NCBI GenBank assembly: GCA_031405795.1
Contig: JANNJI010000175.1
Span: 1 to 27,706, forward strand
Length of the DNA: 27,706 nucleotides
Reading direction: 5' to 3'
Origin: Gammaproteobacteria bacterium
Lineage (GTDB): Bacteria > Pseudomonadota > Gammaproteobacteria > UBA6429 > Thiohalophilaceae
Below are positions 11,533 to 27,706 of the stretch, piece after piece. Every line of letters starts with the position of its first letter. The stretch's first letter is position 1. The notes below the pieces were generated by a model, which had not been told where the DNA came from, searched no databases, and was given only the letters and a program-made list of their open reading frames with translations. A program made the position numbers and the translations under genes.

Positions 11533-11534
11533 TG

Positions 11535-11565
11535 ACCGATCTTATGTAAGATACGGTATTTTTTT
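11535..11565 (+). terminator. Intrinsic terminator-like hairpin inside the operon
   Basis: ACCG-ATCTT-ATGT-AAGAT-A-CGGT followed by ATTTTTTT directly after the pvc16 stop. Confidence 0.45.
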
Positions 11566-11621
11566 GCATAGTTATATATTTAATCACAGCAGTGCCAGGA
11601 TATTATTAAGGAGAAAATGTT

Positions 11622-12944
11622 ATGGCAAATTATCTATCGCCGGGAGTTTATGTTCATGAGGTTCCTTCAGGCACGGCACCAATTAACGGTGTTGGAACAT
11701 CTACCGCTGGATTTATTGGTATCTTCGCTGATGTCATCCAAATTCCTTTTGAAAACCCTGACTATGATCCATCCAAGAAGGCTACTGAATCGGAAGCTGA
11801 ACCAGTTGATATGGCTGAGCCTGCGCCGGGCGCCGCTGCAAGAAGACGTGCGGCCAGAACAACAAGTGGTCAAAACAGTCCTTTTATAACGAAAGAGTTT
11901 AAACCAATCGATGCTGGTGAAGTTAAATTAGTCACCAATAAAAGCGAATTCAGAAAATTTTTTGGTGATTTTTCAACTGATGACGGCCATGGAAAATTGC
12001 TGCATGCGGTTAATGGATTTTTTGATAATGGTGGAACACGCTGTTTTGTTGTGCGCGTAAAAGAAAAATCCAAGATACTTACTACTGCGCTGGAAAAATT
12101 CGAATCCATCGATGAAATTTCTATCGTCGCGGCGCCCGGTATCGCCGATGCAGACGTACGTAGCGCACTTGTTACGCATTGTGAAAAAATGGGTGACAGA
12201 TTCGCAATATTGGATTGTGCGGAAGAAACCGAGACTGATGGAACCTTTGATCGGGATAAACTCAGTGAACCGCAGGATTCAAACTATGCTGCAGTGTATA
12301 TTCCCTGGTTTCGTGTTTTTGATCCGGCATTAAAAATCACCAATCCAGACGGAAATGGCAAACGTTATATTGCGCCGAGTGGTCACATTGCTGGTATTTA
12401 TGCACGTGTTGATGCTGAACGTGGGGTGCATAAGGCGCCAGCAAACGTAGTAATCAGAGGGGTGGCGAGCCCGGATGATCTTAAGTATCGCCTGAGCAAG
12501 GCACAGCAAGATGGATTAAATCCTGTTGGGATTAACTGTATACGCCACATAAATGGGAATGTGAAGGTGTGGGGCGCGCGAACCATCGGTGGCGCCAGAA
12601 ATGATGAATGGACATATGTATCAGTGCGACGACTGTTTCTTTATCTACGTGAATCTATTGATGAGGGCACCCAGTGGGTCGTATTTGAACCAAACACGCC
12701 TAACCTTTGGGCAAAAATAACGCGAAATATTACCGCCTATTTGACCAACGTATGGCGCGATGGTGCATTGTTTGGCAACAGCCCGCAAGAGGCTTTTTAT
12801 GTCAAATGTGATGCAGAAACAAATCCACCGGAAATACGTGATTTGGGACAGGTTGTAACTGAAATTGGTGTTGCTGTTGCCAGACCGGCAGAGTTTGTTG
12901 TATTCCGTATCAGTCAATGGCAAGCAGAAGCAACAGCCGAATAA
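11622..12944 (+). CDS. Contractile tail sheath protein 1
   Basis: YLSPGVYVHE, FFDNGGTRC, AAVYIPW, PSGHIAGIYARVDAERGVHKAPAN, VWGART, YVSVRRLF, RPAEFVVFRI. Confidence 0.96.
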   Translation: MANYLSPGVYVHEVPSGTAPINGVGTSTAGFIGIFADVIQIPFENPDYDPSKKATESEAEPVDMAEPAPGAAARRRAARTTSGQNSPFITKEFKPIDAGEVKLVTNKSEFRKFFGDFSTDDGHGKLLHAVNGFFDNGGTRCFVVRVKEKSKILTTALEKFESIDEISIVAAPGIADADVRSALVTHCEKMGDRFAILDCAEETETDGTFDRDKLSEPQDSNYAAVYIPWFRVFDPALKITNPDGNGKRYIAPSGHIAGIYARVDAERGVHKAPANVVIRGVASPDDLKYRLSKAQQDGLNPVGINCIRHINGNVKVWGARTIGGARNDEWTYVSVRRLFLYLRESIDEGTQWVVFEPNTPNLWAKITRNITAYLTNVWRDGALFGNSPQEAFYVKCDAETNPPEIRDLGQVVTEIGVAVARPAEFVVFRISQWQAEATAE

Positions 12945-12982
12945 TATAAATCCATTATCGGAAAAAACAGACCAGGAAAAAA

Positions 12983-14122
12983 ATGTCACAATATTATTCG
13001 CCCGGTGTTTACATACGAGAAATCGTTCCGCCACCCGCGCCTGGGTTGCAGACGGGCGTACCTGTTTTTATTGGCTACACACGATGCTCGCCAAATAAGA
13101 CAGATGATCAATCATCCTATGTGCTTACCAGCTGGCAGGATTTTCTGCAAAAGTTTGGAGAGCCGGTAACGACAGGTTTCCTGGGTTATGTGGTACAGGG
13201 ATTTTTCGAAAATGGCGGTAAGATTTGTTACGTTTATCCACTCGAGGGTGATATTGAAATTGCATTACGACGGTGTTTGGAATTTTTGGAGTCATGGGAA
13301 GAATGCGATCTTGTGTGTGCGCCAGATGTGATGCTAAATCCAGAAAATGCTATCGAGTTACAAAGGGCATTACTGGACCATTGTGAAAAACAAGGTAATC
13401 GATTTGCCGTACTGGATTCGCTTCACGCAAGTGATGAACATACCGTGGTACGGCAGCGGCAAGCACTGCGCTCGAATAACGGCGCACTTTATTATCCCTG
13501 GGTGGTTGTGAGTTCTGATACTGAGCCATGCGGTAAGGTTGTCCCGCCGTGTGGGCATGTCGCCGGGGTTTATGCAAGCACTGATAGGCAGATTGGCGTA
13601 CACAAAGCTCCGGCAAATGTGCAGCTTAAAGGTATTGTCGGTATTGAAAGTGATATTAATGTTGAGATACAAGATCGTTTAAATCCACACGGGATTAACT
13701 GTTTACGTATTTTTCCAGGCAGAGGTATTCGTATTTGGGGCGCAAGAACATTGAGTGCTACACCAACCTGGCGTTATATCAATGTGCGGCGGCTTTTAAT
13801 GAGTGTGGGATGCTGGTGCGATAAAAATCTATCCGATATTGTATTTGAAATTAATCATCCAAGATTATGGGCTCGCCTTGAACGTGCATTAACGGCCTAT
13901 TTAACAGAATTATTCATGCGTGGAGCATTGCAGGGTAAGTCAGCGCGTGAAGCGTTCTATGTTAAATGTGATGCCGACACAAACACTGTCAATATGATAA
14001 ATGCAGGAACAATTATAACTGAAATCGGGCTGGCACCATCAGTGCCAAGTGAATTTGTTGTAATGCACATTGTACATAGCAACAACGGTGTTCATTTATT
14101 AGATCGTATCTGGAATACATAA
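12983..14122 (+). CDS. Contractile tail sheath protein 2
   Basis: YYSPGVYIRE, FFENGGKIC, GALYYPW, PPCGHVAGVYA, GVHKAPAN, IWGARTL, YINVRRL, PSEFVV. Confidence 0.95.
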   Translation: MSQYYSPGVYIREIVPPPAPGLQTGVPVFIGYTRCSPNKTDDQSSYVLTSWQDFLQKFGEPVTTGFLGYVVQGFFENGGKICYVYPLEGDIEIALRRCLEFLESWEECDLVCAPDVMLNPENAIELQRALLDHCEKQGNRFAVLDSLHASDEHTVVRQRQALRSNNGALYYPWVVVSSDTEPCGKVVPPCGHVAGVYASTDRQIGVHKAPANVQLKGIVGIESDINVEIQDRLNPHGINCLRIFPGRGIRIWGARTLSATPTWRYINVRRLLMSVGCWCDKNLSDIVFEINHPRLWARLERALTAYLTELFMRGALQGKSAREAFYVKCDADTNTVNMINAGTIITEIGLAPSVPSEFVVMHIVHSNNGVHLLDRIWNT

Positions 14123-14141
14123 ATTATCAAGGAGAAAAGAC

Positions 14142-14597
14142 ATGGCAACAGGAGAACGAAGAGATCCTTACCGGCAATATAACTTCATTGTAGAAATGGA
14201 TGGTATAACCCGCGCTGGGTTTAAGGAATGTTTTGGTTTGGATTCAAGTCAGGACATTGTTAATTATCGCGAAGGCGGTGAAAAATTGTCGGTTCGGCAA
14301 TTGCCAGGATTGGTCAGATATTCAAGGATTGTTCTTATGCGGGGGGTTACCGATGATCCTGAGCTATGGAATTGGCGTAAAGATGCGCAAGATGGAAAGA
14401 TTAAACGCAAAAATGGCTCTATCGTTTTATTGGACGACACAGGCGCAGAAAAAGGTCGTTGGAACTTTACTGATGCATGGCCGGTGAAGTGGGTTGGCCC
14501 GCACTTTAATGCCACAGGTAGCGAGGTTGCGATTGAAACGCTTGAACTGACACATGAAGGCCTCGATAAAATAATGCAGGCAAAAGCGGGTAAGTAA
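14142..14597 (+). CDS. Tail tube protein 1 (T4 gp19-like, Afp1/5)
   Basis: DPYRQYNFIVE, YREGG, LPGL, IVLMRGVT, WNFTDAWPVKWVGP, AIETLELTHEG. Confidence 0.95.
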   Translation: MATGERRDPYRQYNFIVEMDGITRAGFKECFGLDSSQDIVNYREGGEKLSVRQLPGLVRYSRIVLMRGVTDDPELWNWRKDAQDGKIKRKNGSIVLLDDTGAEKGRWNFTDAWPVKWVGPHFNATGSEVAIETLELTHEGLDKIMQAKAGK

Positions 14598-14630
14598 TAA
14601 AGTGGAAGTCAACATAGGTATGGCGATCAG

Positions 14631-15107
14631 ATGCAAATAAATGTCAGAAAAGATCCCTATTTAGCCTTTAATTTTCTGGTTGAAATTGATGGCCTGCAAG
14701 TGGGTGGGTTCAATGAAGTCGAAGGTTTGCATCTTAAGGTTGAAACCATCGCTTATTGCGAAGGCGGTGGCGGTGGGACTGTGTATCATTTGGCAGGCGA
14801 GCCTCGTTATGGTTGTGTCACCTTAAGTCGCGGTATGACAACGTCAATGGATCTGTGGGATTGGGTATTAAAAACTGTCGAAGGTGAGATTGTTCCGCGT
14901 CAGGTATCGATTGTTTTACGGAATATAGATCCGGAGTTGGAAGAAACACGTTGGAACCTCGCAAATGCATGGCCGCGCGAATGGAAGGCAGGCTGTTTTA
15001 ATGCGTTGAAAAGTGCTTTTTCAATAGAAAGCTTGTCATTGGTATTTGGCAGTATAAAACGAGAAATAGGCAATGTTAAACAAGTTAAAGAAAATATTAC
15101 TGCTTAA
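14631..15107 (+). CDS. Tail tube protein 2 (gp19-like)
   Basis: DPYLAFNFLVEIDG, FNEVEGL, VTLSRGMT, WNLANAWPREWKA, IESLSL. Confidence 0.92.
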   Translation: MQINVRKDPYLAFNFLVEIDGLQVGGFNEVEGLHLKVETIAYCEGGGGGTVYHLAGEPRYGCVTLSRGMTTSMDLWDWVLKTVEGEIVPRQVSIVLRNIDPELEETRWNLANAWPREWKAGCFNALKSAFSIESLSLVFGSIKREIGNVKQVKENITA

Positions 15108-16131
15108 GCTCGAGCGTATACTGCGGAATTGGGCAGATGCAATCCTGAAACTAGTGACAATTCCACCGTCAGTGGACGAAATCAGCAATGATTCAGTAAA
15201 CGGCGAAGCCGTGTTGGATATGCCTGGTGAACAAGAGCCGCGCAATTCAAAAGAAACGAATTATGTAGCAGCGGAAAATATAAATAAAGAATTAATGTCG
15301 CGCCCAATAGTCACTTTTTCTAATACAGTTGACCTGGAAATAATGCCACAATCCGCAGCGGATGTTAACGAAAGTAGTGTAACTCCCACCAGTCTGCAGT
15401 CACCAGTTAATGATAGTGGTGCTGCTACACGTGGGGTTGTTGCAACGGAAAAAGAGAGGGACATAAAACCATTTTTAAATGAAACGGTACGGGAAATGGT
15501 CGGCGCGGGGTATGGCCAAGTTAAAACACAAAAAGATAAGTATAAAATCGAGAACTATATTACAGACGGTGGCATTCAATACCAACCAGCTGCATATAAC
15601 AAACACGAAATTCAGCAACACTATAGCCTTTTAGCAACAGGCCATTCCGATGATGATGGCTATAAAGCCGCATCATTAACGTTAAGCATTGTAAAACGTG
15701 AAAAATACAATGCATTTTATGCTGAATTTTACAACGAAAAAAACATATTCGATAAATCAGACGTCTGTATTGATGAGCCGCAAGAAAAAATAAATTTTAC
15801 ACGAAATATTGCAGAACATGTTCAGCATATTCCAGCATCAATCGTAAAGGGTAATTTCTATATTGCTGAAAAATCAATATCGGAGTCGGGCATAAAGACT
15901 GATCCAGGAGCAAGGCATTGGCCGGAACTTGGCGAATCCGCGCCAATAATTCATATTAATGATGGACATAACTCAAGCGGTAATGTGCAACATTGGCCGG
16001 AATTTCCCTTGATGGATCAAGTAATTGATACAGCGTATGTACATGAAATGTCGCATGCCGATTATTACCGTGAGCTTATGCATCGTCGTGAGCTGGATAT
16101 GGAACAACAAGGTCAAGTATGGAACGCGTAG
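15073..16131 (+). CDS. Hypothetical CIS-associated protein, mostly low-complexity
   Basis: Fills the gap between tube 2 and Afp7 and overlaps both. Amphipathic N-terminal helix and two HWPE motifs near the C-terminus. Confidence 0.7.
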   Translation: MLNKLKKILLLKLERILRNWADAILKLVTIPPSVDEISNDSVNGEAVLDMPGEQEPRNSKETNYVAAENINKELMSRPIVTFSNTVDLEIMPQSAADVNESSVTPTSLQSPVNDSGAATRGVVATEKERDIKPFLNETVREMVGAGYGQVKTQKDKYKIENYITDGGIQYQPAAYNKHEIQQHYSLLATGHSDDDGYKAASLTLSIVKREKYNAFYAEFYNEKNIFDKSDVCIDEPQEKINFTRNIAEHVQHIPASIVKGNFYIAEKSISESGIKTDPGARHWPELGESAPIIHINDGHNSSGNVQHWPEFPLMDQVIDTAYVHEMSHADYYRELMHRRELDMEQQGQVWNA

Positions 16132-16844
16132 CATTTCTGATTGAGAGCAGCGGCGAGCGCTTGGGATGCATGTTAAATCCCGGAAGCCTGGTTTTAAGAC
16201 GCCGTGCAGGGATAAAGTCACGTGAGTCAGTTGGCGGATTTATTACGGGCACTGAATTAGCCGATGAGCCATTGCAGTTAACTAATGGTGGCTGCACGGA
16301 GTTGACACTTGATCTGTTATTTGACGTGTCGTTACCAGGCTCATCGATCACGAGCAATGATGTCAGGGACTTAACCCGGCCGCTCTGGAATTTAGCGGAA
16401 AACACCAAGCAAGTCGACATGAACAAAAAACTCCCGTTGTGCTGTTTCCTGTGGGGTAAACAATGGAATATTCCAGGGGTCATCACAGCCATTGCCGAGC
16501 GGCTGGAGTTTTTTACACCGTCTGGTTTACCCAGGCGTTCCTGGTTGCGCCTGATATTAAGGCGTGTTGCCTCATCTGCGACACTGGCGCCAATGAATAA
16601 TATTGAAACTCAATTGCCTGATTTGGAACAAGCGGAATTCGATTTTCAAAATACGCTGATTGCCAGCGAAGAAAGTGATACTGAAGTTAAGATTACCGCG
16701 GTATCCGGTGAACGGTTGGATCAACTTGCCTATCGGTATTATGGTGATACACGATTCTGGCGGCATCTGGCCATATTTAATGATATTACCAATCCGTTGG
16801 ATTTAGCGGGTGGCGATTCAATCGAAGTACCGGCTTTAACATAA
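16119..16844 (+). CDS. Afp7/Pvc7-like tube initiator with C-terminal LysM domain
   Basis: MLNPGSL, TELTLDLLFD, FLWGKQW, ERLEFF..SGLPRR; LysM-like GERLDQLAYRYYGDTRFWRHLAIFNDITNPL. Confidence 0.88.
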   Translation: MERVAFLIESSGERLGCMLNPGSLVLRRRAGIKSRESVGGFITGTELADEPLQLTNGGCTELTLDLLFDVSLPGSSITSNDVRDLTRPLWNLAENTKQVDMNKKLPLCCFLWGKQWNIPGVITAIAERLEFFTPSGLPRRSWLRLILRRVASSATLAPMNNIETQLPDLEQAEFDFQNTLIASEESDTEVKITAVSGERLDQLAYRYYGDTRFWRHLAIFNDITNPLDLAGGDSIEVPALT

Positions 16845-16849
16845 GGATT

Positions 16850-18427
16850 GTGGTTATGGATATGTTAGTTTCGCTGCCGAAGTTAACCATCGAAATAAAT
16901 GGGACGGCTATGTCAGTTGCCGATGGGCGTGTGTTGTCGGGTTTACGGGTTCAACAGCGCCTTTCGTTGCCAACCTTGTGTGAAATGACTTTCATAGATC
17001 CAGATGGAACTATCGCAACGTCAAATCAATTAATAATAGGCGCAGAATTATATATTTCTATTGACAGCCAAAACACATCGCTGTTCCAAGGGCAAATTAC
17101 CGCGATAGAGTATGATTACGGCTCTTCAAATGATAGAACAGTTCGAATACGTGGTTATGATAATCTCCACCAACTTCGTAAACGTCAACCCGTGTGTGCA
17201 CATGTCGAAGTAACCCTTGTTGAATTGGCGCGGACATTTTCAGCGAGCCTAGGGATGTCAGTTGCAGCAACTGAAAGCGGGCCGGTCTGGAAAAAGCTTG
17301 TGCAGTTTCGCCAATCCGATCTGGAATTTATGACGGAACTTTCTGAGCGTTGCGGCTTGTACTTTACGCTACGAAATAATGTGTTGCAGTTTCTGACCTT
17401 AAAAGGGTTTGGCGAACCGGCTCTATTAGCACTGGGTGACTCGTTGCTTGAGGCGCGCGTTGTTGCAAATGGTGATCCTGCATGTCATTCCGTAACAACA
17501 ACAGGATGGGATCCTTGGTTAGCCGCAGAACACAGCGGTTATGCCAGTGTGGCGCGTGTTGGCCGTTCAGTAACTACCGAGATTCCAGCGGACAGCGTTG
17601 GTGGGACAGGTGAGCGGATACTGGTTGACGAAGTTGTTCAAAATGCCAGCCAGGCTGAGGTTATTGCCCAGGCCGAGCTTGATCGACGCGTGGCAGGAGC
17701 GGTGGTTTTTTTTGGCGTTGCTACCGGCAACGCGCAATTGCAGCCAGGTATACCGATCACTGTCAGTGGTATCGCAGATGCGATTAGTGGTAATTATGTA
17801 TTAACAGCGGTTACGCACACGATTGATCATAAACATGGGTTTTTGTCGATACTTGAAACCGCTCCGCCTCCGAACAGCAAAAAGAAACATAGCACGGCAA
17901 CTACCGTGGGTATTGTTACGCGGGTTGACGATCCGGAGGGCCTTGGTCGAATTCGTGTGAAGCTGCCAAATTACAATAATATCGAAACGGATTGGTTACA
18001 AATTGTGGCGCCGGGTGCAGGCAAAGATAAAGGTATTATTGCCTTAAACGACATTGGTGATCGGGTTTTACTTGTGTTTAATCACGGTGATCCTGCACAG
18101 GCTATTGTACTCGGTGGTCTTTATGGCTCTGTGTCACCACCCGATGCGGGTGTGGTCAATGGTGCAATTCGCCGTTATCTTTTTCAGACGCCTGGTGGGC
18201 AACGTATAAAACTGGATGATGAAAAAGATACGGTAGCCATTTCTAACGGCAAAGGCACAACAGTTAGCTTGTCGCCTGGCAGAGCAAAAATCACCAATAG
18301 CGATGGCAGTTATATCGAACTATCCCGTGAAAAACTCACCATCCATTCCAAAGTTAAGCTGGAGATCGAAGCGCCAGGACAGGCAATAGTCATGCGTGGC
18401 CAATCGATTGATTTTGCGAGGGCATGA
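16850..18427 (+). CDS. VgrG-like spike / baseplate hub (Afp8-like, gp27-gp5 fusion)
   Basis: LFQGQITAIE, QFRQSDLEF, YVLTAVTH, OB-fold GIVTRVDDPEGLGRIRVKLP, DIGDRVLLVF..GDPAQAIVLGGLY. Start may be the ATG at 16856 (better RBS spacing). Confidence 0.92.
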   Translation: MVMDMLVSLPKLTIEINGTAMSVADGRVLSGLRVQQRLSLPTLCEMTFIDPDGTIATSNQLIIGAELYISIDSQNTSLFQGQITAIEYDYGSSNDRTVRIRGYDNLHQLRKRQPVCAHVEVTLVELARTFSASLGMSVAATESGPVWKKLVQFRQSDLEFMTELSERCGLYFTLRNNVLQFLTLKGFGEPALLALGDSLLEARVVANGDPACHSVTTTGWDPWLAAEHSGYASVARVGRSVTTEIPADSVGGTGERILVDEVVQNASQAEVIAQAELDRRVAGAVVFFGVATGNAQLQPGIPITVSGIADAISGNYVLTAVTHTIDHKHGFLSILETAPPPNSKKKHSTATTVGIVTRVDDPEGLGRIRVKLPNYNNIETDWLQIVAPGAGKDKGIIALNDIGDRVLLVFNHGDPAQAIVLGGLYGSVSPPDAGVVNGAIRRYLFQTPGGQRIKLDDEKDTVAISNGKGTTVSLSPGRAKITNSDGSYIELSREKLTIHSKVKLEIEAPGQAIVMRGQSIDFARA

Positions 18428-18765
18428 TGAAAATAATGACACAAGATGCAATCGTCGTATGTGCGCATGAAACCGGTATTGTTGGGATTATAGCGACACA
18501 AAACCTGGTGACCGTCACAGGTCGAGGGGTTTTAGTCGAAGCCGATCCGGAACAACGCCCAATTGTGGGCTGCCCAATGGTGGGTGTCGGTATTTTTCCG
18601 TGCCTTCAAACATTGAGAGTCCAGGCTGGTTATTCCGATTTAATTCGAATTGAAAATCGTCGAGTGTGCCTGGATACCGTGACGGGGCTTACCAATGGAA
18701 CACCACCGGGCACCGTCATCTATAAAGTACGCAAACCAGGCCAGGATTTAGTTTCGGAGGTGTAA
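18424..18765 (+). CDS. Probable spike-tip protein (PAAR-like / Afp10 position)
   Basis: Small beta-rich ORF between spike and gp25 with CAH, GCP, PC and VC metal-ligand candidates. No literal PAAR motif. Confidence 0.65.
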   Translation: MMKIMTQDAIVVCAHETGIVGIIATQNLVTVTGRGVLVEADPEQRPIVGCPMVGVGIFPCLQTLRVQAGYSDLIRIENRRVCLDTVTGLTNGTPPGTVIYKVRKPGQDLVSEV

Positions 18766-18766
18766 T

Positions 18767-19183
18767 GTGGCTATAAAAAATCGTGCAGTGTATTTTCACC
18801 ATCCGGATTTCGATTCGATCGACAGCATGGCAGGTTTACAGATTACCAAAAATGGTGGTCTGCAAATGGTTGACGAAGATGCCTCGGTGCGCCAAGCGAT
18901 ATTATTAATATTATCCACTGCAAAAGGCGAACGAGTAATGCGGCATGATTACGGGTGTGATTTGGATCAATTGGCATTTATGCCAACAGATGAGACAACA
19001 CTCGGTCTGGCCATTCATCTTGTACGCCAGGCATTGAGACAATGGGAGCCGAGGATTGATATCCTGCACTTGGATGCGGAGTTTAATAAAAACGAATCCT
19101 CCAGGATGGATATTATGCTGAATTACCGCGTTCGTCGTACTTCAGCCACTGGCAACATGATTTTTCCAATAACTATGTCGTAA
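18767..19183 (+). CDS. GPW/gp25 baseplate wedge protein (Afp9-like)
   Basis: SVRQAILLILSTAKGERVMRHDYGC, ALRQWEPRI. GTG start. Confidence 0.93.
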   Translation: MAIKNRAVYFHHPDFDSIDSMAGLQITKNGGLQMVDEDASVRQAILLILSTAKGERVMRHDYGCDLDQLAFMPTDETTLGLAIHLVRQALRQWEPRIDILHLDAEFNKNESSRMDIMLNYRVRRTSATGNMIFPITMS

Positions 19184-19193
19184 ACAGAATAAT

Positions 19194-21797
19194 ATGACGC
19201 TACCAACGCCTAAACTTGATGACCGCAGATTCGACGACCTTGTCGCTGAGGGACGCCGTAGAATTGCACAACGCTGCCCCGAATGGACCGATTTAACGGT
19301 AAACGATCCTGGCATGATGTTGTTAGATGTATTTGCGTATTTAACAGACATCATGATGTTTCGGTTGAATCAAGTGCCGGAAAAAAATTATGTGCGTTAT
19401 TTACAACTGATTGGTGTGCAAATACAGCCGCCGGCTGCTGCAAGTGTCCGGCTGACATTCAAAGCGAGTCGTCCACAGGATAAGCCATTGGAAATTAAGC
19501 GTGGCACACGGGTGACAACCGCGCATGCAACAGGAAGCTCCGGCTCACCCGTGTTTGTAACTGCAGAGACGATTACTCTGGCCGAGGGTGCAATACAATC
19601 CGAAGTGATGGCCTATCACTGTGACATGATCGAAACAGAATTTGCCGGTTATGGTACCGGCATGCCGGGCTTGGCTATATCCGCACGCCAACCACCTATT
19701 GTTGCGCCGATTGGCGATAGTTTAAACCTTGTTGTTGCCGTTGAGGCTATTCACGAAGAGTTGGAAGTAGGCACCGCAGCGATAAACCATGAAGGAAAAA
19801 CCTATCGAGTTTGGCGTGAGGTGGAAGATTTCAGTAATGTGGGTGATGATAAATATGTTTATGTTGCCGACCGGACCAATGGCGTTATCAATTTTGCCCC
19901 CGCATTGCGCATGCAAAAGAAAGGCGGCGCGTTGGCGGAATTACCAGAAGCCTTGGCAGCCATTCCTAAAGATGGCGCAGGCATTCTGCTGTCATATTTT
20001 CGCGGCGGTGGTATGGAAGGCAATGTCAGTGCCAAAACATTAACTGTACTGAAAGATCCTTTACCCGGTCTTGATGTTAGCAACGCCGACCCTGCCACGG
20101 GTGGGCGTGCAGTCGAAAGCCTGGAAAATGCCTTATTACGAGGTCCGATTGAGCTTCATTCCTTACGTCGGGTGGTGACCGCCAGAGATTTTGAGTTGGT
20201 CGCAACACGCAATTCCGGCGCAATTGAACAAGCGCAGGCCTTTACCAAAGCGACACAATGGTGTTTTGCAACACCTGGCACCGTACAAATATTATTGGTC
20301 CCGCAGGTACCAAAAGAAATGCGCGGGGCATTTGGTCAGGTTACTGTCGAGACGTTACAAAAGCATCAGACCGATACGGCACGCATACAGATACAACAGA
20401 TTATCGATGAAAGAAAGCCCATGGGAATTACCACAGAGGCGATTTGGACACGACTCAAAACGGTTCAAGTAAAGGCGCGTGTTATTGTGCATCGCGAGGA
20501 AGACGCAGCAGCAGTGAAACAGCGTTTATTACAACGACTCTATCAAACCATCAGCCCCTTAGCGACACCACCCAATGTCAAAGCGTGGTCGTTTGGCCGA
20601 TCCTTAACAGGTTGGGATGTTTATAAGATCATGAGTTATGAACCTGGCGTCATCTCTGTCGCGCAGGTTCGTCTTGTCGTTGAGAATGCACCTGATAAAG
20701 CAGTGCGTGCACTCGCCGCAGATATGTATCAGCCTGACACGTGGTATGTTGGTGAAGAAAACATGTGCTTCAGAACATTAAATAATGCCAATGGCTGGGA
20801 AACTGTCGGGCAGTTTAACGGTGAAGTGATCGATTTAATCAAACCGTATCCGCCGGAGATTGGTGCGCTATCAAAACATGCAGGCCTGGTAGCGATTGCG
20901 ACGCGGTTAGATGGAGAAAAGTCTGGCTCACGCTTGCATTTTTCACGTGACTGTGGAGAGAGTTGGGAGTTGGGCCCACAAACGAAATTTCATATTCAAG
21001 ATATGGCTTGGATCGAGCGTGACGGTGTTGCCAATCTATTGCTTGCCACCGAGTTAGGTTTGTTTCAAGTTGAAGCAAAACCCGGTGCGGTGCCGCGACA
21101 AATCGTGGTGGATGAGGCGAGTAAAGATCTTGGTTTTGTGGCGGTGGTTGTCGCGACCGGTGCCTGGGGTGGTACCAGTGTTGCTGTGGCGGCACGCGGC
21201 GAACGAGGTGTGTTTCTTTCATCCGAAGGTGGCCGACCAAATACATTCAAACCAATTGGTCTTGATGGTGAGGTGATTCCTGTACTTGCCGTGCAACGAC
21301 GTGACCTGGATCAATATTTATGGGCGGGGGTTGCTGCGCCCGGAGATCAAGCTGGCACGGGTTGTTATCGTTGGCGCCTGACCGGTTCAGTGGAAAATAA
21401 TGAAGGCTGGCGGCCTTATAACACAGGTTGGAAAGGCGGTAGTTGCCGTTCATTGGCCTTTCAACGTTCGCGTATTTTTGCGGCTACATCACGATTAGGC
21501 GTTTTACGCTTGGATGTGGATGCACAAGATCCAACCTGGTTGATTCCAGACGTGAGTTGTGGATTGCCACTACATGAAGTCGGCAGATTGGAAATTGTGG
21601 ACAGTGTCGTGACAGATCCGGCAGGAAAGTTTGTCATCGCGGCAGGAATAAAAGGTATTTATCGTAGCGAGGACAGTGGTGTTAACTATGTTAAGTGTTC
21701 CAACAATGAGTTTACGGATGAAGTGACGCTGCCAAAAACGTGGTTGTTTTGTTCTGCCGAACATGACATAGAGGTGGTCAGCGAAGATGAAGCATAG
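19194..21797 (+). CDS. Baseplate J-like assembly protein (Afp11-like) with inserted beta-propeller
   Basis: LPTPKLDDRRFDDL, WTDLTVNDPG, RLNQVPEK, NADPATGG..ES, RRVVTARDFE. From about aa 500 there are Asp-box-like motifs (SRDCGESW, SEDSGVNY). Confidence 0.92.
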   Translation: MTLPTPKLDDRRFDDLVAEGRRRIAQRCPEWTDLTVNDPGMMLLDVFAYLTDIMMFRLNQVPEKNYVRYLQLIGVQIQPPAAASVRLTFKASRPQDKPLEIKRGTRVTTAHATGSSGSPVFVTAETITLAEGAIQSEVMAYHCDMIETEFAGYGTGMPGLAISARQPPIVAPIGDSLNLVVAVEAIHEELEVGTAAINHEGKTYRVWREVEDFSNVGDDKYVYVADRTNGVINFAPALRMQKKGGALAELPEALAAIPKDGAGILLSYFRGGGMEGNVSAKTLTVLKDPLPGLDVSNADPATGGRAVESLENALLRGPIELHSLRRVVTARDFELVATRNSGAIEQAQAFTKATQWCFATPGTVQILLVPQVPKEMRGAFGQVTVETLQKHQTDTARIQIQQIIDERKPMGITTEAIWTRLKTVQVKARVIVHREEDAAAVKQRLLQRLYQTISPLATPPNVKAWSFGRSLTGWDVYKIMSYEPGVISVAQVRLVVENAPDKAVRALAADMYQPDTWYVGEENMCFRTLNNANGWETVGQFNGEVIDLIKPYPPEIGALSKHAGLVAIATRLDGEKSGSRLHFSRDCGESWELGPQTKFHIQDMAWIERDGVANLLLATELGLFQVEAKPGAVPRQIVVDEASKDLGFVAVVVATGAWGGTSVAVAARGERGVFLSSEGGRPNTFKPIGLDGEVIPVLAVQRRDLDQYLWAGVAAPGDQAGTGCYRWRLTGSVENNEGWRPYNTGWKGGSCRSLAFQRSRIFAATSRLGVLRLDVDAQDPTWLIPDVSCGLPLHEVGRLEIVDSVVTDPAGKFVIAAGIKGIYRSEDSGVNYVKCSNNEFTDEVTLPKTWLFCSAEHDIEVVSEDEA

Positions 21798-22332
21798 CGA
21801 TATTCAAAAACTACTGCCGGAAGTTTATCAGCGTGGCTTGCAGACGGGTAAACCACTGGATGCATTATTGGATGTCATGATTGGCATGTTTTCGCCGTCA
21901 GAAACGGTATTGGAAAAAATTGATACGTATTTTAGCCCTTATACGGCGCCGGATGCATTTGTCCGCTACCTGGCGAAATGGGTTGATCTTGATCGCTATC
22001 TTGGCACAACAACAGAGCGATCGTCTTCATCACAATTGGCCCCGGTGGTAATAGAACCTGGGCGCTTACGTGAACTTGTTGCGAAAGCGGCAGAGTTGTC
22101 ACAATGGCGTGGCACCGCCAAAGGATTACAGGTTTTTTTAGAAACAGCAACAGGCGTCCGTGGTTTTATAATTGATGAGGCGGTGACAGATAAAGACAGT
22201 ACCAAGCGAGTTTTTCATATTCTGATTCGCGCCCCACAGGCCGCGTCACAATACCAACAACTCATTACCCGAATTGTCAATGGTGAAAAACCGGCATATG
22301 TCACTTACGAACTTGAGTTTAGCCAGATTTAA
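21787..22332 (+). CDS. Phage tail protein (P2 gpI-like) baseplate component
   Basis: LLPEVYQ, FSPYTAPDAFVRYLAKWV, RLRELV, WRGTAKGLQVFLE, EKPAYV. Confidence 0.88.
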   Translation: MKHSDIQKLLPEVYQRGLQTGKPLDALLDVMIGMFSPSETVLEKIDTYFSPYTAPDAFVRYLAKWVDLDRYLGTTTERSSSSQLAPVVIEPGRLRELVAKAAELSQWRGTAKGLQVFLETATGVRGFIIDEAVTDKDSTKRVFHILIRAPQAASQYQQLITRIVNGEKPAYVTYELEFSQI

Positions 22333-22346
22333 CAAGGAGAAAATGT

Positions 22347-23714
22347 ATGGCAACAATAGCTACAATTCAATTGCCAGAAGGTGATCAACGCGTTATCAAG
22401 ATAAAACCAGGCGATCATGTGGAAAAAACCTTTACAGTTTCCAACATATACGGATCACAGTTACGCATCGGCTTTCAATGTCAATTTGACAAACCAGAGC
22501 AAAAAAAATGGGCCAAGCCCAAAGAACCAGTCGAACGTGATTTTGGCGACCAGGGATCAGAGCAAGTCAAACTCGAGATACAGATACCAAAAGATGCCGT
22601 TCCGGGCAAATATAATCTAAAACTGTTGGTTTATTCTTTAAAAGATCCAAATCTTGACTTCACCTTGTCTGATCCCATTGTTGTCGAGGTAACCGCTGTG
22701 GATGCTATCGCGCCAAAGCCAAAACAAATATGGCCGTGGATCGTGGCAGGTGTAACAACACTGCTGATCATTGGTGTAGTGACGTGGATATTACTGCCAA
22801 CAAACGTGATAATCCCCAATCTTGTTGGTAAACCCATTGATGAAGTAACCACGCTGTTAGAAGGCAAAAAAATACCTCTCGGCGAAGTTACCGAAGAAAG
22901 GACCGGCAAGGCACAAGTGGGGGAGGTTTTGTCGCAGTCACCAGCGGCGGATACCACAGTAAAAAAATCGGATCTAAAACCCATAAAATTGGTTGTTGAA
23001 ATATTTTCTGTCGGCGTACCCGACGTAAAAGGGATGACGGTTACTCAAGCCCAGCATGAATTTAAATTGAATGGATTAAAATTGGGTGCTGTCAATGAGC
23101 AAAAAACTGGATCCGCACCCGGTGGAACTGTTTTAAAAACCGATCCGGAAATTGGTACACGTGTAGCACCGGATGCTGAAATTATGTTATCGGTGGAAAC
23201 ACAATCTGTAATCATCCCCAGTGTGGCAGGACAGTTGCTAACGCAAGCCAAGCCGGTACTGGAAGGATTGGGTTTAATGGTTCAAGTGGAACTGGTGAAA
23301 ACCGGGGCGCAAGGCTTACATGTTCTGAGTACACGACCCGTCTCAGCGACTGCTGTAAAACCCGGCTCAACAGTTGTCTTGGTTGTTGAGAAACAGATGT
23401 TGTCTATTCCGAATTTCAGCGGTCAAAACCTGGATAGTGTCGTCAATCAACTCAATAATATGAATCTGCGGTTGGGTGCAGTCAGAAGAGTGTTTGTAAT
23501 TGGTAGGTCTACCAATACAGTTCTGTCGCACATTCCTGCTGCGGGTGCTTCGGTTGATCCGCTTACACCGTTAACTTTTATTGTTACCCAGGGTTCGTCG
23601 ACGATATATCCCTACAAGGCGGTCATTTCACCCACTTTTAATATGAAAAGTATAAATACATTGGGGGTAATACGTCGTGAAGTGGCACCACTGGTGGCGC
23701 CAGAGAAACAATAA
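22347..23714 (+). CDS. Single-pass membrane protein: N-terminal Ig-like domain, TM helix, 4 PASTA domains
   Basis: TM segment IWPWIVAGVTTLLIIGVVTWILL. Four repeats beginning IPNLVG, VPDVKG, IPSVAG, IPNFSG, each ending in a V..Q/T.P..G..V......L.V pattern. Confidence 0.82.
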   Translation: MATIATIQLPEGDQRVIKIKPGDHVEKTFTVSNIYGSQLRIGFQCQFDKPEQKKWAKPKEPVERDFGDQGSEQVKLEIQIPKDAVPGKYNLKLLVYSLKDPNLDFTLSDPIVVEVTAVDAIAPKPKQIWPWIVAGVTTLLIIGVVTWILLPTNVIIPNLVGKPIDEVTTLLEGKKIPLGEVTEERTGKAQVGEVLSQSPAADTTVKKSDLKPIKLVVEIFSVGVPDVKGMTVTQAQHEFKLNGLKLGAVNEQKTGSAPGGTVLKTDPEIGTRVAPDAEIMLSVETQSVIIPSVAGQLLTQAKPVLEGLGLMVQVELVKTGAQGLHVLSTRPVSATAVKPGSTVVLVVEKQMLSIPNFSGQNLDSVVNQLNNMNLRLGAVRRVFVIGRSTNTVLSHIPAAGASVDPLTPLTFIVTQGSSTIYPYKAVISPTFNMKSINTLGVIRREVAPLVAPEKQ

Positions 23715-24161
23715 AGAATGAGAAGCAAATTACATTGTATGGAAAAAATAATGACCATTTTTTGTTTACTCTGGCCGCTGTCTTGAAGCAGGTTAAATGT
23801 ATATGAGGAGAAAGTTATGGCAACAATAACGACGATTCAATTGCCGGAAGGCGATAAACGAAGTATTAAGATAAAACTAGGCGAGCGTGCGGAAAAAACC
23901 TTTACGGTTACTAACGTCTACGGCTCCCGCTTGCGCATTGGCTTTCAAACTCAGTTTGACAGTCCACAGCAAAAGAAATGGGCAAAACCTAAAGAACCGG
24001 TTGAACGTGATTTGGGTGATCAGGGATCAGAACAAGTTACGCTTGTCATCGATGTACCGAAGGATGCGGCGCCTGGCAAATACAACCTTAAATTACTGGT
24101 CTATTCGCTGAAAGATCCCAACCTCGACTTTACGTTGTCAGATCCCATTGTTATAGAGGTT
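22347..24161 (+). repeat. Duplicated N-terminal module (22347-22691 and 23817-24161)
   Basis: Manual alignment gives 95 of 115 identical residues between the two N-termini. Confidence 0.95.
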
Positions 24162-24734
24162 CCTGCACCTGATGTTGTCGCAGCACCTGTGCCGAAAATA
24201 AAAATGTGGCCATGGATACTGGCTGGTGTAGCCGTGTTGCTCATTGTCGGTGGAGTAATTACCTGGGTGATCTTGTCATCGGGAGCGAAAGAGCCGGATG
24301 TGGTGGTCAAACCGCCCCCGCCAGATAAGCCAGCTACCCAGAATCCCCCGGCTGCTCAGCGTGCCTGCCCTTATGGTGCGGACCAATGTCTTCCAGAATT
24401 TGTTTGGCGCGAGGCATTTGCTGGAGACCATGTGTGTGTAACACCCGATGTTCGTGCGCAGACAATGGCTGACAATCGGATGGCCGCATCGAGAAGATCA
24501 GTCAGGGGAGGCGCATATGGGCCGGATACCTGCCTGATGGGCTTTGTTTGGCGCGAGGCCTCGCCGACTGACCATGTTTGTGTCACTGGTCAAACTCGCA
24601 CTCAGGCGAGTAATGACAACTTAGCGGCACGGTCACGACGCGACCCCGAGTGCAATCGCCTGTTACAGATACGTCCATTCAAGGCGATGGAAGGAATACG
24701 CCGTGAGGCACCGCCGCCGGAACCAAACAAATAG
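23817..24734 (+). CDS. Single-pass membrane protein: same N-terminal domain, TM helix, Pro linker, two 48-aa Cys repeats
   Basis: TM segment MWPWILAGVAVLLIVGGVITWVIL. Repeats YGADQCLPEFVWREA...DHVCVT...DN and YGPDTCLMGFVWREA...DHVCVT...DN. Confidence 0.85.
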   Translation: MATITTIQLPEGDKRSIKIKLGERAEKTFTVTNVYGSRLRIGFQTQFDSPQQKKWAKPKEPVERDLGDQGSEQVTLVIDVPKDAAPGKYNLKLLVYSLKDPNLDFTLSDPIVIEVPAPDVVAAPVPKIKMWPWILAGVAVLLIVGGVITWVILSSGAKEPDVVVKPPPPDKPATQNPPAAQRACPYGADQCLPEFVWREAFAGDHVCVTPDVRAQTMADNRMAASRRSVRGGAYGPDTCLMGFVWREASPTDHVCVTGQTRTQASNDNLAARSRRDPECNRLLQIRPFKAMEGIRREAPPPEPNK

Positions 24735-24831: not shown

Positions 24832-25410
24832 ATGGATACGAAGAAACTGGTAATAATTGCGTTGGTAATGATGGCGGTCTTGTATCTCGCTGGTGTGGGC
24901 ACGCACTTTGCGTCGAAGGAGTGCGATAACAAAAGCACTGACGCGTGCAAAGACAGCTACATTGCCAAATCCGGCAAGTCGGGAGGAAAAGGCAGCTGGG
25001 AGAAATCGTTGGGCGAGCTGATGTCTCCTTTTGCTCCCGGGCTGCCGGTGGCAAAGTTGCTCGATGATAACAAGACAAGCTGTGACTCAGTGTTGTATCA
25101 ATCACAATACCGGGTGATTCAGTTATCCAGCAGCAAACTGTCGTGCCGGATAGCGATTACGGCATTCACAGAAGATGACTTCCGCAAAGGCACACTGACA
25201 CTGATGGAACCGGCTGGCGCCCGGATCAAAGTGCAGTTTACATCCAATGATCCCGAGGTAAAGTCAGAGAAGGACGAAAATAAGCTGCCCATACTCACTG
25301 ACAATGCACCGGTGAACATCACTGTGATGGCAACGGGGGGGACGCTGGTACTGTCGTGCATGAACTGTAATGGTTCTGGTAACAATCTGGTACGGGTGAA
25401 ATTCAAATGA
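24832..25410 (+). CDS. Hypothetical protein with N-terminal signal/anchor helix
   Basis: MDTKKLVIIALVMMAVLYLAGVG followed by a soluble beta-rich domain with several Cys. Confidence 0.7.
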   Translation: MDTKKLVIIALVMMAVLYLAGVGTHFASKECDNKSTDACKDSYIAKSGKSGGKGSWEKSLGELMSPFAPGLPVAKLLDDNKTSCDSVLYQSQYRVIQLSSSKLSCRIAITAFTEDDFRKGTLTLMEPAGARIKVQFTSNDPEVKSEKDENKLPILTDNAPVNITVMATGGTLVLSCMNCNGSGNNLVRVKFK

Positions 25411-25440: not shown

Positions 25441-26130
25441 ATGCTGGATTCATTGAGAAAGCCGCTTTTTATTATTGCCTTGATATTGCTGGTAATTGCC
25501 GTGCTCGTGGAAATGGGTTCAGTACTGCTCGCTGAAACAATAAAAAATGCGCCCCAGCCTGGTCTGGGTATTTCGTATCTGGTGTTGATCGATGGGATGC
25601 TGCTTTACATCATCTGCTTAATTGGCGTTGCGCTGATTCTGCCAGAACGAGTTTATGGACGCGTCCAGGGTGTGATCACGTTTATAGTTTCGTTATTGAT
25701 ATTGCTTGGCTCGATCGTGCTGATATTTAAAGCGCTATTGTTATTAATGTTAATGTTGTCATTGTTGATGGCTGTGCCATTTGGAACCATCGCCTATTTT
25801 GCACTATACGCAGATTTTAATACGAAAGGTGCGGCTGTTACGCTGGGAATAATCATGTCGTTAAAGTTATTTTTTGCCGGATTTCTGGTGTTTTCGCACC
25901 AGCGGTTTTTGCAAAACAAGAGCCTCATATTTTTGATCCTGACATCACTGCTGGCGAGCATCATTGTTAGTTTTTTACATGGGTTTGTCCCGGGGTTTCT
26001 CGTTAGCATAACAGATGCCATCGGCGCACTTGTTATTGCTATTCTAGCGGCGATATGGGCAGTATTTTTGTTAATTGGTTCTATCCCGGCAATTATAAAG
26101 GCATTGAGGGTTGATAGAGCGCTAAGTTAA
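25441..26130 (+). CDS. Polytopic membrane protein (about 6-7 TM helices)
   Basis: Almost entirely hydrophobic segments separated by short polar loops. Confidence 0.8.
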   Translation: MLDSLRKPLFIIALILLVIAVLVEMGSVLLAETIKNAPQPGLGISYLVLIDGMLLYIICLIGVALILPERVYGRVQGVITFIVSLLILLGSIVLIFKALLLLMLMLSLLMAVPFGTIAYFALYADFNTKGAAVTLGIIMSLKLFFAGFLVFSHQRFLQNKSLIFLILTSLLASIIVSFLHGFVPGFLVSITDAIGALVIAILAAIWAVFLLIGSIPAIIKALRVDRALS

Positions 26131-26202: not shown

Positions 26203-26871
26203 ATGTCAGAATTGGTAAAAGGACTTTTGACTGTCGTCGTCAGTACGGTACTGATGACAGGCATGTTTGTACTATTAAACATTATTTCTGGCGACATCAT
26301 TCCGCTTGGTTGGGCTGCGTTAATCGGTGCATTATTTGGATTTGGTTATGGCTTAGAAGCCGGAATCGTCGGGATTTATCCATTATCAGAGTTTAAAGGT
26401 TGGCTGGAACTGATTATTGATGCGACCTGGAGCCTGCCTAACACTGTATTTGGTTTCATTTTCGCCAACTGCATTTATCCATTTTTCGGCAACATTTCAA
26501 AAACTCGCAGTAAGGATAGCGGTTGGATTGTCTATATGCCGACCTCAACCGGTAGCGGATTTGGTAATTCCGTATTACAGACATTGGGAACAATCAACTT
26601 AGGTGGCGCAGGGCAACACGAACGTATGCATCTGTTACAGGCAAGGATATTAGGTCCCCTCTATTTGACGCTTTATGCGATTAACTACATTGTCACTTTC
26701 CTGATTCAGGTTTTATGGACATTTACTGTCGGCGGACTGTTGTGGCTGCTTAAAGTACGTAATAAACCCTATTTTAATCCATCAGGACATTCCGCTGTAC
26801 CAGGATTTTTCGGCTGGATTTATTATGCCACGGTATTTGAATTATGGGCATATGCATCGGGTAATCCCTGA
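26203..26871 (+). CDS. Membrane protein with Gly-rich helices and HExxH motif
   Basis: N-terminal TM helices, GALFGFGYGLEAG, WSLPNTVFG, QHERMHLLQARILGPLY, C-terminal FELWAY. RBS AAGGA. Confidence 0.72.
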   Translation: MSELVKGLLTVVVSTVLMTGMFVLLNIISGDIIPLGWAALIGALFGFGYGLEAGIVGIYPLSEFKGWLELIIDATWSLPNTVFGFIFANCIYPFFGNISKTRSKDSGWIVYMPTSTGSGFGNSVLQTLGTINLGGAGQHERMHLLQARILGPLYLTLYAINYIVTFLIQVLWTFTVGGLLWLLKVRNKPYFNPSGHSAVPGFFGWIYYATVFELWAYASGNP

Positions 26872-26944: not shown

Positions 26945-27316
26945 ATGGCAAGAAGCGTAGTACCAACTGAACCATTTCGTGAAAAATTATTGAAATTCTG
27001 TCCAACAGAAACGGTAGGCGCCTGTCTGGCAGCGTTAGGCATGCTTTCTGCGATGGACCCCGGCACATTGCATACCACATTGCTGTGGGTTGTTTTTGCG
27101 GCTGGTCTTATTGCGACACCATTCTGGCTTATTTATAAAATGGATATGCGCAAGCCTTTGCAAGTGATCGTCGCGACGCTTGCATTCATTATTTGGATGA
27201 TGACGATTGACGGCGGGCCGTTTTCAACGATACCCGGCTATCAATTAGTGATTGGTTCAGTGGCGCTGATTATTTTTTCAGGATTTATCGCACCACTGCT
27301 TGGTAATATTGAGTAG
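26945..27316 (+). CDS. Small 4-TM membrane protein, paralog A
   Basis: True start is probably the ATG at 26945 (AAGGAG upstream) rather than 26825. KLLKFCPTE...TPFWLIY...LQV...FIIWMM. Confidence 0.8.
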   Translation: MARSVVPTEPFREKLLKFCPTETVGACLAALGMLSAMDPGTLHTTLLWVVFAAGLIATPFWLIYKMDMRKPLQVIVATLAFIIWMMTIDGGPFSTIPGYQLVIGSVALIIFSGFIAPLLGNIE

Positions 27317-27386: not shown

Positions 27387-27706
27387 GTGGCTAGTTCAGG
27401 GAATATAAATAGATCGATTGATCGTGATGATGTTTATAGCAAACTCTTGCTTAAGATGCTGCCAACGGAAATGGTAGGCGTCTGTTTGGCGGTGATTGGT
27501 ACAATATTTTCGTTCACGGAACCAGGTGGGCTGCAAACAGGACTATTGTGGACTGTATTTGCGGTAGGACTAATCGCAACCCCTTTTTGGCTTATTTATG
27601 GCATGGAAATCAAAAAACCATTGCAGGTCGTTATCACCACGATCGGTTTTGTTATCTGGATGATGACGATGAAAGGTCCGTTTACCACATTACCTGGTTA
27701 CCAACT
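27387..27706 (+). CDS. Small membrane protein, paralog B (3' truncated, absent from the ORF track)
   Basis: AAGGAG then GTG at 27387. Translates as MASSGNINRSIDRDDVYSKLLLKMLPTEMVGVCLAVIG...GLIATPFWLIYGMEIKKPLQVV...IWMMTMKGPFTTLPGYQ, open to the window end. Confidence 0.85.
   Translation, partial: MASSGNINRSIDRDDVYSKLLLKMLPTEMVGVCLAVIGTIFSFTEPGGLQTGLLWTVFAVGLIATPFWLIYGMEIKKPLQVVITTIGFVIWMMTMKGPFTTLPGYQ

Follow-up and report, generated by a model that had tools for sequence, protein, structure and literature searches.

Ig-headed membrane proteins with exchangeable ectodomains in the tail-fibre slot of a contractile injection system: candidate envelope adaptors

The field has yet to settle how contractile injection systems (CISs) other than the type VI secretion system (T6SS) make contact with a membrane before they fire. 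The solutions described so far are three, unrelated to one another: Cis13 of Anabaena, CisA of Streptomyces, and a haloarchaeal protein with six transmembrane (TM) helices. The question arises again at a locus of a gammaproteobacterium, where two paralogous genes, here called A and B, lie directly 3' of the baseplate genes of a CIS operon, on the same strand, and occupy the slot of the tail fibres. What might a pair of predicted membrane proteins be doing in that slot? The DNA analysed (hereafter the window) is the whole 27,706-nucleotide (27.7-kb) contig JANNJI010000175.1 of a 3.7-Mb metagenome-assembled genome (MAG; GCA_031405795.1). We describe a modular protein family to which A and B belong and propose, at about even confidence, that its members are bitopic inner-membrane proteins acting as the envelope adaptor or anchor of the CIS.

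Both proteins consist of an N-terminal immunoglobulin (Ig)-like head, a TM helix that begins with the residues WPW, an ectodomain and a short C-terminal tail (Table 1). A preliminary description of this DNA, made from the sequence alone, counted 95 identities among the N-terminal 115 residues, and the count is exact. It also described similar WPW-led helices followed by unrelated payloads, as we find: the helix is strongly hydrophobic in both proteins, whereas the four PASTA domains of A and the two cysteine-containing repeats of B yield a best local score of 28 (p = 0.57 by shuffling). BLASTP aligns the two proteins over residues 1–150 only (116/153 identities, E 4e-80) and returns no second significant segment. 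The best sequence matches of the A ectodomain in the PDB are the PASTA regions of PknB (2kui and 3py9). The repeats and proline-rich linker of B match nothing in Pfam, NCBIfam or PHROG.

The heads of A and B are about 77% identical at the DNA level over 300 nucleotides, with a synonymous divergence (dS) of 1.77, a nonsynonymous divergence (dN) of 0.11, and a dN/dS of 0.06. With dS this high and dN this low, the duplication is old, and selection on the protein rather than recent gene conversion has kept the heads alike. A single-protein search for related loci recovered only a sister MAG (L012). There the two genes follow each other as they do in the window and have kept their tails, and identity over the head and TM helix of A (residues 1–155) is 93%. 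The dN/dS ratios between the window and this MAG (Table 1) point to purifying selection on both paralogs. The word cassette-like, used in the preliminary description, is apt on an evolutionary scale but not for a switching mechanism. We rejected recent gene conversion and programmed cassette switching given the dS of the heads, the lack of inverted repeats or switching sites, and the finding that the sole direct repeat is the 77%-identical head itself.

AlphaFold2 models the head (residues 1–118) as an all-beta sandwich with a mean predicted local distance difference test (pLDDT) score of 92.7. The top Foldseek matches of the model are the ASH domain of CEP192, MSP, the pilus chaperones DraB, FaeE and CupB2, and ciliary central-pair proteins, and on this structural prediction we assign the head to the PapD/ASH-like Ig folds. 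Among curated models there is no match above threshold, only sub-threshold matches to NPCBM_assoc/NEW3. The head is the most conserved region of the protein: it is 68% identical to that of P0005, a single-copy homolog from another MAG, vs 40–58% for the PASTA domains. Comparison of profiles by hhalign (92.7% probability, E 4.3e-7, 95 columns, residues 13–111 of the family) indicates that the head is remotely homologous, at about 19% identity, to the first Ig domain of Sco4256-type proteins, which are encoded in Streptomyces CIS clusters. The Sco4256-type profile was built from seven Streptomyces and Kitasatospora proxies, namely a homolog on plasmid pSCATT (L018:9818-11146, minus strand; PMC10020575, Supplementary Data 4) and six plasmid relatives annotated as 'hydrolytic protein', 'hydrolase' or 'RICIN domain-containing protein'.

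A search with the head, combined with a catalogue of the C-terminal domains, revealed a modular family of at least 208 cluster representatives (exhaustive head search, E ≤ 1e-3). Almost all of these carry the head at residues 1–115 of proteins that are 129–630 residues long. Domain and TM statistics were drawn from 148 analysed representatives. The TM helix lies at about residues 125–150 in 139 of the 148. What follows the helix is highly variable and includes modules of 46 Pfam families: PASTA is found in 82 of the 148 representatives, and others carry PAN, ricin, PKD, Lcl_C, beta/gamma-crystallin, LamG or PG_binding_1. Rather than a fixed architecture without a conserved tail, we see varied architectures and a tail motif that recurs in 16 of 131 other representatives (see below). 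The modularity that the preliminary description read from the pair alone is borne out, since head and helix are constant, the outer domains vary, and the paralog heads are under strong constraint; the docking adaptor role it attached to that modularity is argued here from gene position and analogy.

The family is rare in its own phylum, as a sample of 401 genomes of that phylum contains one marginal extra match besides the genome of the window. Two loci come from Pseudomonadota, the window MAG and a Paracoccus plasmid. For a wider range across phyla there are leads from the ESM Atlas only, which are unconfirmed. Neither A, B nor the genes downstream have a match in PHROGs.

The paralogs carry no signal peptide. 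Among the 139 members with a helix in the usual place, the flank richer in lysine and arginine is the N-terminal one in 75 and the C-terminal one in 32. This bias, the missing signal peptide, and the fact that PASTA domains are extracytoplasmic lead us to favor a topology with the head in the cytoplasm and the ectodomain outside. The Cys repeat of B, which in other proteins follows Sec signal peptides, agrees with this topology.

The CIS operon occupies positions 10963–22332 on the + strand. It comprises genes for a Pvc16-type cap, two sheath proteins, two gp19-type tube proteins, a CIS_tube/LysM-type protein, a VgrG-like spike, gp25, a cis11-type baseplate J protein with a long C-terminal extension, and a short cis12-type protein resembling P2 gpI. 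Base composition had suggested a cyanobacterial thylakoid CIS. This was rejected because the closest relatives of the window are MAGs labelled Gammaproteobacteria bacterium. Only 14 nucleotides separate the cis12-type gene from the start of A, and 102 nucleotides separate A from B; a ribosome-binding site (GGAG) precedes each paralog. A and B are probably co-transcribed with the baseplate genes, because promoter-like and terminator-like sites in the stretch holding the pair are no commoner than in shuffled sequence. Separate regulation of B was rejected for the same reason.

The position of the pair is characteristic of the family. In eight of ten independent loci a family member adjoins cis11/cis12; the exceptions are L013 and L010, the latter carrying the same protein as L009 on a short contig. 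Gene context was taken from nine looked-up members plus the sister MAG. Seven of the nine (P0005, P0009, P0021, P0098, P0049, P0019 and the Paracoccus plasmid protein) lie directly 3' of the short gpI-like gene, an arrangement seen in L006, L007, L008, L009, L011, L014, L017 and L012. Homologs of the short cis12-type gene occur in nine related loci, and the preceding baseplate J ortholog is about 865–875 residues long wherever it is complete in L006, L007, L009, L011, L014 and L015, and 843 residues long in L017. In L015 cis11 and cis12 flank the family member (P0111), after which comes a second paralog. We found no other fibre-like gene in these loci.

Downstream of the pair lie two genes for membrane proteins of 192 and 229 residues that are conserved together with the family (Table 1). 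The 192-residue protein has no match in Pfam, NCBIfam or PHROG. The 229-residue protein has no family name; phmmer finds homologs of it (E 1e-29 to 1e-130) alongside the Ig-TM family in seven related loci, L013 among them. Because the 192- and 229-residue proteins recur in six and seven related loci, respectively, we regard the family, by its gene neighborhoods, as part of a conserved membrane-protein module of one CIS clade.

Further features of these neighborhoods are as follows. A polytopic membrane protein with an HExxH motif (window positions 26203–26871) is kept in L012 and L007, where the neighboring family members have tails, but is absent from L006, whose family member also has a tail, so that gene and tail are not strictly linked. 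Two tandem paralogous genes (26948–27316 and 27387–27706) encode small membrane proteins of about 122–135 residues with three to four helices; they have no family match, and both are kept in L012. In L006, L013, L014, L015 and L010, the stretch just downstream of the related clusters repeatedly holds genes for large Peptidase_C14 (caspase-like) and CHAT/TPR proteins, a ceramidase and a phage-type lysozyme, all candidate effectors or regulators. The window contig ends before the region that would correspond to the Peptidase_C14 and CHAT genes. The L017 locus is a compact cluster of the same clade (43.5–55.2 kb) on a 66.7-kb plasmid (NZ_CP067227.1) of the cultured Paracoccus sp. MC1862, and its family member, WP_182804542.1, is annotated merely as 'PASTA domain-containing protein'.

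Table 1. Positions of paralogs A and B, their parts, and the flanking genes in the window
Feature	Coordinates	Strand	Evidence or note
cis11-type baseplate J gene, 867 aa, long C-terminal extension	19194..21797	+	Pfam Baseplate_J E 1e-10; TIGR02243 E 2e-68
Short cis12 / P2 gpI-like baseplate gene, 181 aa	21787..22332	+	Pfam Tail_P2_I E 1.9e-6; TIGR02242 E 5.7e-15
Paralog A, 455 aa: Ig-like head, TM helix, four PASTA domains, tail	22347..23714	+	Sister-MAG copy L012:10001-11365, ~95% identical, dN/dS 0.13
A head, predicted Ig-like (PapD/ASH-type), residues 1–118	22347..22700	+	AlphaFold2 pLDDT 92.7; Foldseek; hhalign
A TM helix, WPW-led, residues 129–150	22731..22796	+	Mean Kyte-Doolittle 2.53 over 19 residues; AlphaFold2 helix 130–149
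A PASTA domains (four), residues ~155–416	22809..23594	+	Pfam PF03793, four stretches, E 2.6e-36
A C-terminal tail, residues 417–455, core IRREVAP near end	23595..23711	+	Smith-Waterman vs P0005 and P0009 tails
Paralog B, 305 aa: same head and TM helix, Pro-rich linker, two Cys repeats, tail	23817..24734	+	Sister-MAG copy L012:11467-12384, dN/dS 0.14
B head, predicted Ig-like, residues 1–118	23817..24170	+	96/118 residues identical to A
B TM helix, WPW-led, residues 131–153	24207..24275	+	Mean hydropathy 2.69
B Cys-containing repeats (two), unnamed, core FVWREA..DHVCV....R.Q...DN, residues 183–283	24363..24665	+	AlphaFold2 pLDDT 87.9
B C-terminal tail, residues 284–305, core IRREAPPPEP	24666..24731	+	Score 59 vs P0005 tail, 0/5000 shuffles
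192-aa protein, N-terminal membrane anchor, co-conserved	24832..25410	+	Homologs 3' of family members in L012, L006, L007, L008, L011, L014
229-aa polytopic membrane protein, co-conserved	25441..26130	+	Homologs in L012, L006, L007, L014, L013, L015, L017

The two paralogs of the window are one of several such pairs. In a maximum-likelihood tree of the heads, the A proteins of the window and L012 group with the two B proteins (support 98/96), and the single-copy P0005 is sister to this group (97/97). The two copies of L015 form a group of their own (99/95), as do the two of L010 (100/100). By this phylogeny, duplications within a lineage have recurred in three lineages, with different ectodomains on the copies. 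In L015 one copy combines PASTA with a Cys repeat of the paralog B type and the other combines PASTA with another domain. The second head copy of L010 (L010:7597-7872), truncated by the contig end, lies 6.5 kb from P0098, and its head is nearly identical to that of P0098. Since P0005 resembles A in having both the four PASTA domains and the tail, paralog B most likely arose from an A-like gene in which everything between helix and tail was then replaced, as the preliminary description suspected.

The Cys repeat itself is about 48 residues long; at least 1338 proteins in the database carry it, in all cases without a family name for the repeat. In most carriers a Sec signal peptide precedes three or four copies, and SH3_3 or PASTA domains are also present in some. 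Each repeat has two invariant cysteines and, in the AlphaFold2 model, consists of a hairpin and a 17-residue helix. Foldseek found no fold match to this model in the PDB, and the ESM Atlas gave no usable lead (score 0.78). We read the repeat as an extracytoplasmic module of a putative binding type. The repeats of the window, together with those of proteins P0155–P0273, constitute a candidate new domain family.

The C-terminal tails were described as similar at the outset, and this holds for a stretch of about 21 residues when an intermediate is used, but the direct match between A and B is weak (score 25, p ~0.05) and amounts to the heptad IRRE..P. Because each tail strongly matches that of P0005 (score 59 for both, 0/5000 shuffles), the tails of A-type and B-type proteins are homologous. 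The A tail also matches that of P0009 (score 57, 0/5000 shuffles). The consensus in A-type and B-type proteins is I-x-x-[LF]-K-x-[LM]-E-x-[IL]-R-R-E-x-P-P-x-E-P. Farther afield, a motif R-x-[VILA]-x-P is present within the last 16 residues of the 16 representatives mentioned above, which have varied payloads, where about 1.6–2.5 would be expected and 1000 shuffles gave at most 8, which amounts to a 6- to 10-fold enrichment at the extreme C-terminus. Hidden Markov models (HMMs) built from four close tails or from 17 distant ones retrieved nothing beyond their own seeds and failed to link the two groups, so that the claim rests on pairwise shuffling and motif enrichment.

The preliminary description proposed that the tail may be a sorting or processing signal. 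The recurrent C-terminal motif is real, but nothing identifies it as such a signal: no curated Pfam or NCBIfam model of the PEP-CTERM, LPXTG or GlyGly-CTERM type matches A or B, and the tails end in acidic, proline-rich sequence, without the hydrophobic segment and basic end of known C-terminal sorting signals. AlphaFold2 models the B tail as coil at low confidence (pLDDT 60–79). We consider it most likely, although this is the weakest step of our proposal, that the motif [IL]-R-R-E-x-x-P ... E-P would act as a short linear peptide docking a partner common to A and B, for which the neighboring 192- and 229-residue proteins are the foremost candidates. Alternatively, the likeness could be a mere remnant of the descent of B from an A-like gene, without a function of its own. 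The head tree agrees with such a history, as in it A and B part only after the single-copy, A-type lineage of P0005 has branched off; in addition, tail identity (33–38%) is below that of the folded domains, and the HMMs from distant tails do not score the window tails. Nevertheless, B has kept its tail while all else beyond the helix was replaced, the B tail has no substitutions relative to L012, and the enrichment of R-x-[VILA]-x-P extends across members with different payloads. We consider a functionless remnant somewhat doubtful. Separately, we note that the last 30 codons of B (24642–24731) show no substitution of any kind, synonymous or not, relative to L012, whereas the dS of 0.12–0.44 in the rest of the gene leads one to expect about four synonymous changes. 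This may be due to chance, or to constraint on the nucleotides ahead of the next gene.

Taken together, position and predicted topology suggest the following model. The head would be cytoplasmic and docked on the periphery of the baseplate, either on the extension of the cis11-type protein, a candidate docking partner, or on the short cis12-type protein. Docking of the head is suggested by its position behind cis12 in CIS operons and, by analogy, by the detection of Sco4256 in purified CIS particles by mass spectrometry (PMC10020575). The helix would span the inner membrane and place the ectodomain in the periplasm, where the four PASTA domains of A would bind peptidoglycan and the disulfide-type repeats of B a second envelope ligand. 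With the 192- and 229-residue membrane proteins, A and B would then fix the machine at right angles to the inner membrane, much as in the T6SS, and possibly report the status of the wall to the baseplate. A more far-reaching version, which we offer tentatively and with less confidence, is that the family is the membrane anchor that turns a compact particle resembling an extracellular CIS (eCIS) into an envelope-fixed, T6SS-like machine in Gram-negative bacteria. The cytoplasmic Ig head would sit on the baseplate wedge and be fastened to peptidoglycan by PASTA or other ectodomains, and the C-terminal peptide would recruit a periplasmic or outer-membrane partner; Sco4256-58 would then really be docking or trigger subunits.

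We favor an adaptor over cargo or a target-binding fibre because of the combination of fibre-slot position, signal-anchor topology, wall-binding ectodomains, and co-conserved membrane proteins. The published reading of Sco4256-4258 is that of membrane-active effectors (PMC10066040), in which case the head of A and B would be a loading domain. After firing, the helix would enter a membrane (target or self), and wall binding at the destination would fall to the C-terminal domain. The homology of the heads fits this reading, and about one-third of the Streptomyces homologs have domains resembling pore-forming lectins (PMC10020575). Moreover, a triple deletion of the Streptomyces genes phenocopies loss of the CIS and leaves the tube lumen empty, and each protein is toxic in E. 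coli (PMC10066040). Toxicity does not discriminate, however, as the adaptor CisA was also reported to be toxic in E. coli (PMC12237407). In the clade described here the gene is in the fibre slot, and even between cis11 and cis12 in L015, rather than among distal cargo genes, while separate effector-like genes (Peptidase_C14, CHAT) flank the related clusters. A strongly hydrophobic signal-anchor helix would insert into the producer's own membrane, and no toxic activity is known for four PASTA domains. Overall, we judge it unlikely that A and B are cargo.

The same slot, the conserved N-terminus and the hypervariable C-terminal binding modules (ricin, PAN, PKD and LamG among the 46 Pfam families) are also what one would expect of receptor-binding fibres of a released CIS. 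The head would then sit on the baseplate, the C-terminal domains would bind the target surface, with PASTA on exposed peptidoglycan of the prey, and the hydrophobic segment would serve oligomerization or transient storage in the membrane. A pair of alternative fibres at each locus would have a parallel in tailocins, which possess multiple fibre genes. Such a role is hard to reconcile with a canonical TM helix at a fixed position in nearly all members, which with the N-terminus in and the C-terminus out would put the producer's membrane between the binding domains and the baseplate. We saw no coiled coil or fibre shaft, and PASTA and transmembrane fibres both go unmentioned in the published catalogue of eCIS receptor-binding domains. 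For these reasons a fibre seems quite improbable. Several observations nonetheless count against an envelope adaptor. The empty tubes and toxicity reported for Sco4256-58 are among them, as is the modest size of the positive-inside bias, and lectin-type ectodomains would suit target recognition equally well. The head shows no detectable similarity to solved CIS components in a PDB-wide profile search (E ≤ 10) or among the top 50 Foldseek matches. Finally, P0091 in L013 has no CIS core gene within 8 kb; it adjoins a homolog of the 229-residue protein and has Peptidase_C14, CHAT and ceramidase genes as neighbors, like the flanks of the other clusters.

If the adaptor reading is correct, a family that fills the fibre slot of one CIS clade and has wall-binding domains in more than half of its members offers a testable proposal for the coupling of a CIS to the envelope in diderms. 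What is specific to the window is a clean natural domain-swap pair in a gammaproteobacterium, with a Cys-repeat payload and a shared C-terminal motif. With the same head, the same tail and a different middle, A and B are a natural experiment for separating the roles of the three parts. The culturable Paracoccus sp. MC1862 and its plasmid provide a tractable experimental system. The link to Sco4256-58 also makes it worthwhile to ask anew if these serve as cargo or as docking subunits.

Inner-membrane subunits that fix a contractile apparatus to the wall are familiar from the T6SS, in which TagL or an extended TssL carries a periplasmic peptidoglycan-binding domain. The proposed model is analogous to this arrangement only, without homology: the T6SS relies on OmpA/Pal-type domains and on a TssJLM complex, and the window encodes none of these. 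A PASTA array directly after a single TM helix, as in A, is also typical of PknB/Stk1 kinases and class B penicillin-binding proteins. However, according to Pfam A has no kinase or transpeptidase domain, and the NCBIfam model PknB_PASTA_kin (NF033483) matches it through the PASTA part of the model only (122.6 bits vs a cut-off of 450). PASTA domains are not mentioned together with CISs in the literature we searched.

Among known CIS proteins, Cis13 of Anabaena (All3316) anchors a thylakoid CIS (tCIS) via a TM helix at residues 122–154 (Weiss et al. 2022, PMC8894136). Like A and B, it is encoded behind cis12 and has an N-terminal globular domain ahead of a helix at nearly the same position (129–150 in A); in Cis13 this domain sits on the baseplate. 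In contrast to A and B, Cis13 ends shortly after the helix, without a large ectodomain, and its membrane is the thylakoid, which is absent in the host of the window. We detected no homology to Cis13 of the solved tCIS baseplate (PDB 7B5H): neither the PDB-wide profile search (E ≤ 10) nor the top 50 Foldseek matches contain a CIS chain.

CisA (SCO4242) is a membrane adaptor with the N-terminus in and the C-terminus out that the Streptomyces CIS needs in order to fire (Casu et al. 2025, PMC12237407). It resembles A and B in being bitopic, in being encoded beside baseplate genes, in having a cytoplasmic part predicted to contact Cis11, and in having an outer domain of a sugar- or substrate-binding type. 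However, the cytoplasmic part of CisA is largely unstructured and contains a cysteine-rich segment, whereas the head of the window proteins is modelled as a compact Ig domain. The C-terminal domains are also unrelated to the PASTA domains and Cys repeats found here.

The closest known counterparts are Sco4256, Sco4257 and Sco4258 of the Streptomyces coelicolor type IId CIS, for which the architecture described here has already been published. These proteins were termed 'CIS-associated effectors' (Casu et al. 2023, PMC10066040), and Sco4256 a 'putative toxin' (Vladimirov et al. 2023, PMC10020575). The first domain of Sco4256 resembles PapD chaperones, and the third, beyond a TM helix, is variable and of a lectin- or toxin-like kind; homologs of Sco4256 occur in type IId clusters of actinomycetes, filamentous cyanobacteria and Chloroflexi (PMC10020575). 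In both cases neighboring paralogs have highly similar N-termini with a PapD-like first domain and a single TM helix, their C-terminal domains vary (two of the Streptomyces proteins carry ricin), and they are encoded in CIS clusters and rarely elsewhere. The templates that we found by Foldseek are of the same kinds as those reported from HHpred (PMC10020575), including 4DJM (DraB) and 3Q48 (CupB2). Ahead of their helix at about 219–250, the Streptomyces proteins have two Ig domains (about 215 residues), in contrast to the one Ig domain (about 118 residues) and helix at 129–150 in the window. In addition, the genes of the window are found in the fibre slot behind cis12 of a diderm gammaproteobacterial host, and their products combine PASTA or Cys-repeat ectodomains with a C-terminal tail motif.

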